Of a stretch of DNA of 64,000 nucleotides, positions 34,666 through 37,377 are shown piece after piece. Made by a program: the position numbers and the translations under genes. How positions within the stretch are numbered: position 1 is the first letter of the stretch; every line of letters begins with the position of its first letter. Source of the DNA: a virus. Taxonomy: Duplodnaviria; Heunggongvirae; Uroviricota; Caudoviricetes. The notes below the pieces were generated by a model. That model had not been told where the DNA came from. It ran no database searches and worked only from the letters and a program-made list of their open reading frames with translations. The DNA lies in the IMG/VR virus record IMGVR_UViG_2802428982_000005, positions 19,927 to 83,926 of that record. The stretch is one strand, 5' to 3'.

Positions 34666-36380
34666 CTACAGTCCGGCAGAGAAGTCCGAGATCAGCTGCG
34701 GGACAGCTGAGTCGAAACCGGACACGTCGAGCTGGCCGGGGTCGGCGGGGTCGGCGATGGTAAAGCGGGTTGCCGTCATGCCGACAACGATCAGGCGGGC
34801 GTTGATGCCCATCTTGTTGCGGTAGTCGCGGAGCGCCTGGTGCGGGTGGATGTCCCCGGACCAGGTCTCGTTGTCGGTGATGACCACGAACGTGTCGAAC
34901 TCGCACTTGGACTGCTGTGCCCACAGCATCGGGAGTGCGCAGTCGGTGGCGCCGAAGCTGAGTCCGGCGGTGTACCGGCACACGTCGTCGAGGCGGCGGC
35001 GCGGCGTGATGTCCAGCGGGGTGATGAAGTGCTGGGACCGGTAGCCGTAGCCCGAGCGCGCGGCCTGTCGGCCGTCGGTGAAGCCGACGACCTCGTGGTC
35101 GGGCTCGACGTTGGCGGTGACGAGTGCGAGTGCGGCTGCGGCCTCGCGGCATGTCAGCGGCATACCCGAGATAGCGGCGCCCATGGAGCCGGACACGTCC
35201 AGCGCCAGCAGGGTGCGCTTGCCCGACGGCTCCACCGCTCCGTAGGCGTTGTAGAACGCGGCGTCCAGGGCGTCCACGACCTTGCGTTCCGGCGTCCAGG
35301 TGGAGTCGCCGCGCGCCGACCGGCCGGACGCGTAGGTGCGCTGCGCGATCAGGACGTTGACTGGGTGGACGCGGCCCTTGCGTAGACGGTCGGCGTCCTG
35401 GAGCTGAGCTACGACACGGTCCAGATATTCACCGTGTAGGACCCCGTGCCGGGTCAAACGAGGCAGTTGGCGCATCAAAGCCGTCTGCGGCAGCCCGTGC
35501 TCAATCAGCGCTTCCCACACAGCGGTGAAGTTGAGCGCGACGTCGGGCAGCGCTTCCCAGGGAAGACCGTTACCGCGTCGGATGATGCTCACCCATTCCT
35601 TGGGTTGGGTGGCGCGCTGGGCGTCCTCGAAGTCCTCGATGATCGCCAGCGGGTGGTCGACCACCAGCTCGACGTTAGGCAGCTTGGGTCGGGAGGCGTT
35701 GCGCTCCCCTGCCTTCAACTGCTCGGCGGTGAGGGGCTGGACCTTGCCGATGTAGTCGTTCAGGCCCTTGCCGACTGCCCAGTTGAAGGCGAGGCGGCGG
35801 GCCGGGTCCGCAGTGGTGGGGCCGGACAGGCGTAGGAGATCTCGGTGCATCCAGCCTTCGCGCTGCCGGTACTTGACCAGCTGGTAGGCGAGGCGGTCGA
35901 CCGGCTTGTCGAGGTACCAGCCGCCGACGGCGCGCTGCATGGCGCGGCCCCACCCGCGGAACTGCTCCATGTACTTGACGAACGTGTAGAGCTGGGTGCC
36001 GGTGCGGGCGACCGTGGGCAGAGCTGCTGCGGCGGCGCGGCGGCCGTCGACATCCTCTGCTGCTGCGGCGATGGCGAGGGCGAACAGGGCCGGGTTCTGC
36101 CGGGGTGCGCGTCCGTCCACGGACACCTCGACGATGTGCTGGACGAGGCGGACCGGGTCGGCCGCTGCTGCGCGGAGCACGACGGCCGCTGTGTCCCTGG
36201 TGAGTTCGGGGGCGTTGGTGTAGTAGGTGCCGCCGTCGGTGCCGAGGGTGAGGAAGCGGTGCAGCAGGGCCTCGTCGTCGATGGTGAAGGTGTAGCCACC
36301 GGCGGAGTTCTTCACCTGCCGGGGGTCCGCCTGCTGCGACTGCGGCGTCTTACGGGTTCCGATAGTGGTGAGAACGTCCA
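34666..36380 (-). CDS. rsr: Ro60-like TROVE domain protein with C-terminal vWA domain (Rsr-like RNA-binding protein), ~570 aa
   Basis: GTG 36380..36378 with AAGGAG SD 7 nt upstream; TROVE-like N-region GGYTFTIDDEALLHRFLTLGTDGGTYY; vWA MIDAS LALDVSGSM ... TDNETW; tandem tRNA-like RNA genes lie immediately upstream on the same strand. Confidence 0.75.
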
Positions 36381-36499
36381 CCGTGCATCTCCTTGTTAGG
36401 GTGCGGGCGGCGCGAACGTGTGAAGGGCGGCCGGGGTTCGTCATCCTTGCGAGGGGTGGGGTAACCGACTGCGATCCTGCTCGTGCCACCCGCGGGGGC

Positions 36500-37300
36500 T
36501 ATTGGGCGGGTGATGTGAACGTGTGTGTGCTGACCGGGATTTCGCTTTTACACCCGCACTGGGTGCGGGCGACAGGGCTTGAACCTGCATTACCAATTGA
36601 GTGATAACCGACCGAGCGTCCTGTTCACATCGGGTTGTCTGTCGTGCGAGCGCGTAGGTGGTGTGGGCGTGTGGGGTGCTGACCGGCGTATGTGGACAAT
36701 TGCCTCTACCAATTGGGCTACACCCCGCGAGCGAGGTGGTGGGGCTCGAACCCACACCTGACTGTTTTGGTAACCGACCTGCGTCCTGTCCACACCGCCT
36801 GCGCGCGTGCGTCTGCTGGTGTTTGAGGTGGTGTGAGCGTGTGGGTGTCGTCCGGGTTTTAGCGCTCTAGGCCACTGAGCTACAACCACTTTCGTGGTTG
36901 ACGGGATTCGAACCCGCGTCTCTCTCGGGAAAGGAGATAACCGAACGAAGTCCTGTTCACACCTTGTTATGTATGGAGTTGTGTTGGGTGATGGGGCGAA
37001 CGTGTGTGTGCTGACCGGGGTTTAGCGCTCTGCCAACTGAGCTACAGCCGGGGGCTGGCTGGCGGGACTCGAACCCGCGACCTCTCCATTAGCAAGTGGT
37101 AACCGACCTGCGTCCTGCTCGCACCATCTGGTGTCTATGTAGTTGTGGTCTGGGGAACGACGTGAACGTGGTTGGCGCTGGGCGGGTTTGGCTCCATTTC
37201 CCCGCTTGGCTCGGGGCGTTCTAACTTGAACTACGGGGGCGTACCCCGAGATAACCGACCTGCATCCTGTTCACGTCGTCCGCTGTTTTGTTGTCTCAAA
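36500..37300 (-). ncRNA. tandem array of about five ~165-nt tRNA-like / Y-RNA-like repeat units
   Basis: On the minus strand: D-arms GCUCAGUUGGCAGAGC, GCUCAGUGGCCUAGAGC, GCCCAAUUGGUAGAGGC; T-arms GCGGGUUCGAGUCCCGC, GCGGGUUCGAAUCCCGU, GUGGGUUCGAGCCCCAC, CAGGUUCAAGCCCUG; acceptor-like stem capped by a loop (CAACCAC-GAAAG-GUGGUUG); conserved 25-nt motif GUGAACAGGACGCAGGUCGGUUAUC (plus 36603, 36771, 36936, 37098, 37250); CA-rich spacers; exact 22-nt repeat gaacgtgtgtgtgctgaccggg at 36517 and 36998. Confidence 0.6.
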
Positions 37301-37304
37301 ACGA

Positions 37305-37322
37305 AGCTATACCGCGGTATAG
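37305..37322 (-). terminator. perfect 18-bp palindrome gctataccgcggtatagc followed on the minus strand by UUCGUUUUGAG; terminator or protein-binding site
   Basis: Between the secreted-protein gene (stop 37378) and the Y-RNA-like array. Confidence 0.45.
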
Positions 37323-37377
37323 CGGTGCGGCAACAGGATTGGGGCTTGGCTGTATAGCCGCTCGGTAGCCGCGACCA

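Follow-up and report, generated by a model that had tools for sequence, protein, structure and literature searches.

A six-unit array of Y-RNA-like genes upstream of the Ro60 gene in a MabK-type prophage

The stretch of DNA considered here (the window) comprises 64,000 nucleotides of the IMG/VR virus record IMGVR_UViG_2802428982_000005 (positions 19,927–83,926; class Caudoviricetes). Its minus strand carries rsr, the gene for a predicted Ro60/Rsr ortholog, and directly upstream of it, on the same strand, six Y-RNA-like units stand in tandem (36407–37282). The locus is a larger, so far unannotated example of the Ro60/Y-RNA (YrlA) module known from phages and bacteria. None of the six units is a real tRNA; three of them (U2–U4) are YrlA-type, circularly permuted tRNA mimics, and the other three (U1, U5, and U6) are Y-RNA-like but not YrlA-type. 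We consider it probable that the locus is a Ro60/Y-RNA ribonucleoprotein module of a temperate MabK phage, sitting at a tRNA-Arg gene of a Mycobacterium abscessus-type host, whose RNA units would be cut from a precursor, bound by Ro60 through a stem, and used to tether the Ro60 ring to PNPase-type partners.

The Ro60 gene and the array upstream of it

The protein-coding gene of the module is as follows:

34666..36381, minus strand: rsr, Ro60/Rsr ortholog with a TROVE ring and a Ro60-type vWA domain; 571 amino acids; Pfam, PHROG, and structure matches

A first-pass annotation, made from the letters of the window without database searches, had proposed a minus-strand protein combining TROVE and vWA domains, the latter with the MIDAS (metal-ion-dependent adhesion site) motif DxSxS, and had named Pfam as the check. 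Both domains were matched, TROVE (PF05731) over residues 23–347 (E 1.2e-46) and vWA_Ro60 (PF25045) over residues 389–567 (E 4.3e-63), and the motif is visible in the translation as DVSGS. The protein also matches PHROG 850, "RNA-binding protein" (E 2.8e-106), the structure of Deinococcus radiodurans Rsr over almost its full length (2NVO, E 3.3e-104), and Ro60 structures, that of Xenopus among them (1YVP and 9NEN), over residues 13–569 (E approximately 4e-100); the chromosomal Rsr of Mycobacterium smegmatis (P0044) is 66% identical to it.

The start codon deserves attention. In the program-made list of open reading frames (ORFs), the ORF at this position runs from 34666 to 36489 on the minus strand (607 amino acids), and its first 36 codons overlap U6. 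The likely start, on a reading of the sequence, is the GTG at 36381, giving the 571-residue protein; an AAGGAG at 36393–36388 precedes it, and the identical GTG start is annotated in the 97%-identical prophage prophiGD43A-5.

The upstream units were delineated with a covariance model, R1, described below. Over the 64-kb window, R1 finds exactly six units, all on the rsr strand:

37282–37157, minus strand: U1, shared stem with a non-tRNA-like insert of approximately 70 nt made up of several hairpins; R1 41.3 bits, E 3.8e-8; outside the training set
37130–36991, minus strand: U2, YrlA-type unit; R1 140.5 bits; in the training set
36968–36828, minus strand: U3, YrlA-type unit; R1 125.9 bits; in the training set
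36801–36658, minus strand: U4, YrlA-type unit; R1 96.9 bits; in the training set
36636–36510, minus strand: U5, variable-arm hairpin, T arm, and 9-bp hairpin; R1 80.5 bits, E 1.6e-17; outside the training set
36492–36407, minus strand: U6, minimal unit of terminal stem, inner helix, and short insert; R1 39.4 bits, E 1.1e-7; outside the training set

The sole other R1 match in the 64 kb, of 20 bits across the host tRNA-Ser/tRNA-Arg pair, is a false positive that joins the T stem of one tRNA to the D stem of the next, and Chen et al. discarded matches of this kind (PMC4201824).

The units lie 26–901 nt upstream of rsr with gaps of 17–26 nt between neighbors, and U6 is located in the 5′ leader of rsr, ending 13 nt before the ribosome-binding site. 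The first-pass annotation had placed about five units, each with tRNA D-arm and T-arm sequences, between 36.5 and 37.3 kb. The array and its rough coordinates stand; the count is six, the array reaches down to 36407 in the Ro60 leader, and both arms are found in U2–U4 only, with U5 having the T arm alone and U1 and U6 neither.

Direct-repeat families with a spacing of 143–170 nt extend across 36408–37282, and the anchor CGGTTAY occurs in six minus-strand copies within the array. In an alignment of the six units (mean column identity 60%), a conserved 5′ module (CAGGAY..GKTCGGTTAYC) and a conserved 3′ module (CCCGG...CACACGYTCRC) flank variable inserts. Tandem Repeats Finder reports no repeat there, the units being only approximately 60% alike.

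The inserts of U2–U4 each contain a variable-arm hairpin, a T arm, a 7-bp acceptor-like hairpin, and a D arm, in permuted order, and the units have no anticodon stem-loop. The T-arm sequence of these three units is GGGUUCGA(A/G)(U/C)CCC, and the D arm of U2 is UAGCUCAGUUGGCAGAGC. U3 combines the T arm GGGUUCGAAUCCC with an acceptor-like hairpin closed by a GAAA loop and a canonical D arm; in U4, the T arm is followed by an acceptor-like hairpin with a CUCG loop and a divergent D arm. The inserts of U1 and U6 are unrelated to the tRNA-like domain. The U1-type insert was found only in the MabK lineage, and a U6-type unit stands at the equivalent position in relatives at 74–76% identity (loci L016–L018 and L022). 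Among U5 orthologs in relatives of approximately 75% identity (L016–L018), all changes in the 9-bp hairpin keep G-U or G-C pairs. The order of the paralogs is conserved across the MabK lineage and the 74–76%-identity relatives; clustering on the similarity of the inserts put U2 and U3 together with every canonical YrlA unit, and the finer paralog assignment was made by eye.

RNA structure and relation to known Y RNAs

Ro60 loci were drawn from viral contigs, genome contigs, and annotated phages, and a MAFFT alignment was made of 20 diverse full-type units, of which the window supplied 3, viral contigs 13, and chromosomal Mycobacterium loci 4. The RNAalifold consensus has 32 pairs, 19 of them with compensatory changes. 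It comprises a terminal stem of 9 pairs, an internal loop, an inner helix of 2 + 5 pairs, and a tRNA-like part with a T arm of 5 pairs, a closed 7-bp acceptor-like stem, and a D arm of 4 pairs. In this alignment, pairing holds in 96.1% of cells, versus 34–43% when the partners are slid by one to three columns, and none of 500 shuffles matches the observed pairing on any measure. Covariation is seen in seven of seven pairs of the acceptor-like stem and compensatory changes in five of nine pairs of the terminal stem; the covariance support for tRNA-like folds that the earlier annotation had asked for is present, and the compensatory changes indicate selection on RNA pairing.

All six window units align to the consensus of the terminal stem and inner helix. 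The inner helix (UCGG/CCGG) is near-invariant, its run of U-G, C-G, G-C, and G-C pairs being invariant, as would be expected for a sequence-specific protein site. On the 5′ side of the internal loop, five of the six window units have the block GCAGGAYG, variants of it being ACAGGACU in U3 and GCAGGAUC in U6; M. smegmatis has GCCGGACG there.

The closest characterized system is the rsr locus of M. smegmatis, where YrlA and YrlB co-precipitate with Rsr (Chen et al. 2014, RNA 20:1715, PMC4201824). R1, which was built from the 20-unit alignment without any M. smegmatis sequence, finds two units there, YrlA at full length with 127.6 bits (E 1e-29) and YrlB with 53.6 bits; they were identified by complements of the published YrlA and YrlB Northern probes, exact in the case of YrlA (PMC4201824). 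The proposal of a Y-RNA-like tandem array co-directionally upstream of the Ro60 gene is borne out. As in the prophage, the Y RNAs of M. smegmatis lie immediately 5′ of rsr on the same strand, they share the terminal stem, the GC(C/A)GGAYG block, and the UCGGUUA/CCGG helix with the prophage units, and YrlA has the same design of variable arm, T arm, 7-bp acceptor-like stem, and D arm. U2 is the unit nearest to the validated M. smegmatis YrlA, the two having the variable arm CCACUU..UAAUGGAG in common. M. smegmatis YrlA, approximately 147 nt long with an acceptor stem of 7 bp, is an RNase P substrate both in vitro and in vivo, and CCA is added to it (PMC4201824). The two systems differ in that M. 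smegmatis has two chromosomal Y RNAs whereas the prophage has six; in that the block reads GCCGGA rather than GCAGGA; and in that YrlB has a T arm whereas U6 has none. In the loci covered, no chromosomal unit corresponds to U1 or U5. As a separate observation, M. smegmatis YrlB (L029 2850–2958) weakly matches the nematode small-RNA family ceN72-3_ceN74-2 (24 bits versus a gathering score of 38, E 0.01).

Phage systems of the same layout are on record. Ro60 and YrlA-like RNAs of mycobacteriophages (cluster C phages of the Bxz1/ET08 type and Sparky/Farewell) go back to Pedulla 2003 and Chen 2014, both cited in PMC4201824. Co-oriented Y-RNA units stand directly upstream of Ro60 in mycobacteriophages ET08 (Bxz1/ET08-type, cluster C) and Farewell, in viral contig L023, and in Gordonia phage BearBQ, but with two units each, against six in the MabK prophage. 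Farewell has a cluster of real tRNA genes ahead of its units, whereas the MabK prophage has no real tRNA. More distant is Thermus phage phiLo, whose Ro60 binds the RNAs Yrl1 and Yrl2 in vitro and forms a ternary complex with the host PNPase (NAR 2025, PMC12135203). Here too the Y-like RNAs are encoded 5′ of the phage Ro60 gene, but the lineage is distant, there are two RNAs rather than six, and Yrl1 and Yrl2, whose defining feature is a CGAA motif, are not presented as mimics of tRNA.

The modular plan of a Ro-binding stem plus an effector module is likewise that of Salmonella Typhimurium YrlA (RF02553) and of D. radiodurans Yrn1, the Y RNA of the RYPER complex, and the order T arm, acceptor stem, D arm has been described for the tRNA-like domain of YrlA (bioRxiv 10.1101/312249). 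Salmonella YrlA differs in having a 6-bp acceptor stem, compared with 7 bp in U2–U4, and in not being an RNase P substrate. Its locus belongs to an RNA-repair operon, RtcBA, controlled by RtcR, whereas no RNA ligase match was obtained among ten further prophiGD43A-5 proteins that were scanned. For the proteins covered, the idea that the prophage has RNA-repair genes linked to the module (RtcB or some other RNA ligase) was therefore rejected; the "polynucleotide kinase" of prophiGD43A-5 is a protein with AAA_33 (below cut-off) and HNH matches.

A proposed mechanism and its alternatives

We infer that the array and rsr would form one transcription unit from which the Y RNAs are cut, because the gaps between units are 17–26 nt, U6 stops 13 nt short of the ribosome-binding site of rsr, and no internal promoters were found. 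Ro60 would then bind the shared stem of each Y RNA; physical association with Ro60, and stability dependent on it, have been shown for the M. smegmatis homologs (PMC4201824). The variable modules may tether the Ro60 ring to host partners, the 3′–5′ exoribonuclease PNPase above all, or gate it. This last step follows the RYPER model of D. radiodurans and S. Typhimurium, and the Ro60 of phiLo forms such complexes in vitro (bioRxiv 10.1101/312249, PMC12135203). Engaging such partners would redirect how structured RNA is degraded or processed while the phage grows. U2–U4 would probably be cleaved by RNase P and receive a CCA end, yielding two-piece tRNA-like Y RNAs, because their acceptor-like stem shares its length of 7 bp with that of M. 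smegmatis YrlA.

Several results weigh against this proposal and should be kept in mind. A sigma-70-type promoter scan gave no match, and no internal promoters were recognized in the array. In RNA-seq of a GD43 lysogen, most prophage genes were reported to be silent (PMC8092301); the genes surrounding the module are described as early lytic (PMC8092301), the module is co-oriented with them, and its expression in the lytic phase would be the default expectation. The published bacterial Ro-binding motif (GNCGAAN0–1G, 5′ strand) is absent in its literal form from all six units; it is also absent from the validated M. smegmatis YrlA and YrlB, and the conserved block GC(C/A)GGAYG stands where it would be. 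The high R1 scores of U2–U4 arise by construction, these units being in the training set. Thermodynamic folding is clearly better than in shuffled sequences for U3, U5, and U1 (z-scores of −3.35, −2.83, and −2.28, respectively) and unremarkable for U2, U4, and U6. The high G+C content weakens this test, and the evidence for RNA structure is covariation, not stability, with the minimum-free-energy fold of U3 reproducing the consensus structure. The link to PNPase, finally, is carried over from other species; on that analogy, phage Ro60/Y-RNA particles would most likely engage host exoribonucleases such as PNPase.

The Rfam scores belong among these adverse results. The first-pass annotation had suggested a search with Y-RNA and tRNA covariance models. 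At gathering thresholds, no Rfam family matches in the array; at relaxed thresholds, YrlA (RF02553) is the top family for U2, U3, and U4, with scores of 38.9, 28.8, and 28.5 bits that lie below the gathering score of 69 (for U2, E 1.3e-6 over the full model length). The validated M. smegmatis YrlA also falls below the threshold, with 45.1 bits, and the sub-threshold scores of the window units are therefore no argument against membership. The RF02553 threshold excludes the whole mycobacterial branch and so does not settle the matter.

At first pass, RNA quality control or repair and a decoy for host tRNA-targeting factors had been put forward as candidate roles. A second reading places the function in the tRNA likeness itself: the Y RNAs would be decoys that soak up host tRNA-directed defense or toxin enzymes (e.g., acceptor-end-modifying toxins), and Ro60 would mainly stabilize them. 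Three different tRNA-like units in one array, with acceptor-like sequences of their own and a conserved 7-bp length, would suit such a role, as would the RNase P cleavage and CCA tailing of M. smegmatis YrlA in vivo (PMC4201824) and the larger size of phage arrays (2–7 units) compared with chromosomal ones (1–2). However, without an anticodon stem-loop the units do not mimic the substrates of anticodon nucleases, half of them (U1, U5, and U6) have no full tRNA-like domain, and chromosomal YrlA RNAs of the same design exist without a phage context. We judge the decoy role very unlikely.

Alternatively, the chief action of the repeats might be in cis: they would make up a structured leader in the rsr mRNA to which Ro60 binds (especially at U6), autoregulating translation or stability, with no free stable RNAs being made. 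The position of U6, 13 nt before the ribosome-binding site, and the tight packing of the units with no internal promoter recognized are what one would look for in a leader. Yet in M. smegmatis, the homologs that occupy this position are discrete RNAs bound by Rsr (PMC4201824), and six units with different conserved inserts exceed what a leader would need. As the chief role of the array, this is highly improbable, although the reading is compatible with the ribonucleoprotein module and not exclusive of it. Both alternatives are less supported than that module.

In a further reading, the array would be the decayed remnant of a tRNA gene cluster (pseudo-tRNAs), or else a repeat at the DNA level, for example a set of protein-binding sites, that lies beside rsr by coincidence. 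T-arm and D-arm sequences are indeed present, a tRNA-Thr is annotated here in one relative, and Rfam gives a single tRNA match of 28.1 bits (gathering score 29). That match is a chimera of two units, with U2 contributing the D arm and U3 the T arm on either side of a 100-nt insert. The annotated prophiGD43A-5 tRNA-Thr(tgt) (L001 8389–8467; MW584167.1 26001–26079) corresponds to approximately 37054–37132 of the window (minus strand) and falls inside the U2 ortholog (R1 8328–8466); it was rejected as an ARAGORN call on the 5′ half of a YrlA unit, in which the variable-arm loop CUUGUAA is read as the anticodon loop, placing the anticodon at 38, which is abnormal. In the window, the call is lost through an insertion of 1 nt (CUUGCUAA), and ARAGORN finds no tRNA in 36400–37300. 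Calls of the same kind were seen in L012 (tRNA-Thr) and L024 (tRNA-Arg tct). With the T arm placed before the D arm, a closed acceptor stem, compensatory changes that reflect selection on RNA pairing, and a strand and position relative to rsr that are conserved in every locus with matches, this reading is contradicted and retains almost no credence.

Prophage setting, distribution, and significance

A query spanning the Ro60 gene and the array is 97% identical to the M. abscessus prophages prophiGD43A-5 and prophiT37-1, which belong to cluster MabK and use attB-1 (PMC8092301, PMC9934374). The window from 13665 to 62644 is colinear with positions 50000 to 1 of prophiGD43A-5, and the similarity stops at 62644, inside the host tRNA-Arg gene (62608–62683); this point is the attB-1 junction. 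The element thus lies on a prophage, in agreement with the setting assumed at first pass. The features beyond the module itself that can be given coordinates are the following:

62608–62820, minus strand: host tRNA-Arg(ACG) and tRNA-Ser(GCT), ARAGORN
37306..37323, minus strand: perfect palindrome GCTATACCGCGGTATAGC followed by a T-rich tract, a terminator-like site 23 nt upstream of U1

The palindrome at 37306–37323 may terminate an upstream small ORF, serve the array as an operator or promoter element, or do both. Its core CTATAC-N4-GTATAG has one exact match in the window (37307–37322) and is the inverse form of another palindrome, GTATAG-N4-CTATAC, which occurs three times in the window (34269–34284, 37727–37742, and 37775–37790) versus 0.23 times expected. 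Each of the three copies ends exactly 10 nt before an ATG, namely those of a gene 55 homolog (34258, minus strand), a small ORF (37716, minus strand), and a BrnT-like toxin (37801, plus strand); each creates a −10-like hexamer (TACNNT), and no Shine–Dalgarno sequence is present at any of the three starts. Within the first 50 kb of prophiGD43A-5, exact copies of the palindrome are confined to the two flanks of the Ro60/Y-RNA module, and conservation of the motif is limited to the MabK lineage. From these sequence features, the palindromes are possibly leaderless promoters overlapped by operators that bracket a self-regulated cassette.

Other neighbors may be noted in passing. The small ORF upstream of the array (37378–37716, minus strand, approximately 112 amino acids) encodes a protein whose N-terminus (MKSLYVKRISVMGAAIAALTALPTATASA) resembles a signal peptide and whose tail is rich in Gly, Ser, and Pro, and the hairpin at 37306–37323 comes after it; the ORF is absent from the annotations of prophiGD43A-5 and prophiT37-1 and has no Pfam match. 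A BrnT-like toxin/antitoxin pair, so annotated in the relatives, lies divergently from the Y-RNA/rsr module (37801–38252, plus strand), and neither of its ORFs matches a Pfam family at E 0.01. The presence of an RNase-type toxin beside an RNA-quality-control module may or may not be coincidence. Directly downstream of rsr, a helix-turn-helix protein gene (34429–34659, minus strand, 76 amino acids) gives a weak HTH_31 match of 19.9 bits, below cut-off. A small helix-turn-helix gene likewise follows the Ro60 gene in Farewell (gene 37, L002 2751–2960) and BearBQ (gene 42, L031 2253–2468), and this conserved synteny suggests a dedicated regulator. The G+C content falls to 0.59 at 28001–32000, compared with 0.63–0.67 elsewhere in the prophage.

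Ro60 has been known in mycobacteriophages since 2003 (Pedulla 2003, as cited in PMC4201824), and YrlA-like RNAs beside Ro60 have been reported from 254 bacteria and 22 phages, with 355 RNAs in total (PMC4201824). The query spanning the Ro60 gene and the array matches 256 phage records, those listed being annotated as "Ro-like RNA-binding protein." When 91 further Ro60 loci were searched with R1, all 298 matches were on the Ro60 strand and nearly all directly upstream. The units at 61 further viral loci are distributed as follows:

0 units: 5 of 61 loci
1 unit: 3 of 61 loci
2 units: 20 of 61 loci
3 units: 17 of 61 loci
4 units: 8 of 61 loci
5 units: 6 of 61 loci
6 units: 1 of 61 loci
7 units: 1 of 61 loci

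By group, the R1 counts per locus are:

MabK records and close relatives: 5–7 units
Relatives at 74–76% protein identity: 4–5 units
ET08, Farewell, viral contig L023, and Gordonia phage BearBQ: 2 units each
Chromosomal Mycobacterium loci: 1–2 units (4 genome-contig loci from a single-protein scan, plus M. smegmatis)

Tandem Y-RNA arrays are the rule at the phage Ro60 loci surveyed, with at least two upstream units in 53 of 61 and at least three in 33 of 61, and the six units of the window are in the upper tail of the distribution without being unique. The view that a multi-copy array beside a prophage Ro60 gene is unusual finds no support in these counts, in the 22 phages already reported (PMC4201824), or in phiLo (PMC12135203).

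Among close relatives, one locus (L009 3471–3602) has a U3-type unit from which the 3′ strand of the stem is lost and which continues straight into its neighbor, so that five intact units remain (compare L010 3412–3551), and three others (L012, L013, and L015) have an extra YrlA-type unit between U2 and U3, for a total of seven. Copy number and integrity are thus polymorphic among 97–98%-identical prophages, consistent with unequal recombination between units. In ET08, the coding sequence of gp219, a "hypothetical protein" (L030 4159–4332), overlaps both Y-RNA matches (4182–4260 and 4286–4438) and is probably a spurious ORF call over Y-RNA genes.

A broader idea, which we regard as rather unlikely, is that temperate actinophages expanded the one or two chromosomal Y RNAs to as many as seven, equipping one Ro60 ring with a toolkit of adaptors in which the YrlA-type members, once opened by RNase P and given CCA, would act as split tRNA mimics and titrate or redirect host tRNA-directed enzymes or defense toxins, the palindrome-bracketed MabK cassette being perhaps self-regulated. 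If this were true, the palindrome shared with the start of the BrnT-like toxin would tie expression of the module to the toxin–antitoxin system.

For annotation, the array is a case in point, since it is missing from or mislabeled in the GenBank records of MabK prophages: it is unannotated in prophiT37-1, and in prophiGD43A-5 a single tRNA-Thr(tgt) stands in its place. Together with the survey, this should help in annotating phages and in picking systems for tests of Y-RNA module function. The sole biochemical study of phage Ro60/Y-RNA particles is on a Thermus phage. The MabK prophage offers a tractable case in a clinically relevant host, with six distinct Y RNAs and one Ro60, close homology to the characterized M. 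smegmatis system, and an existing lysogen RNA-seq dataset for a 97%-identical prophage.

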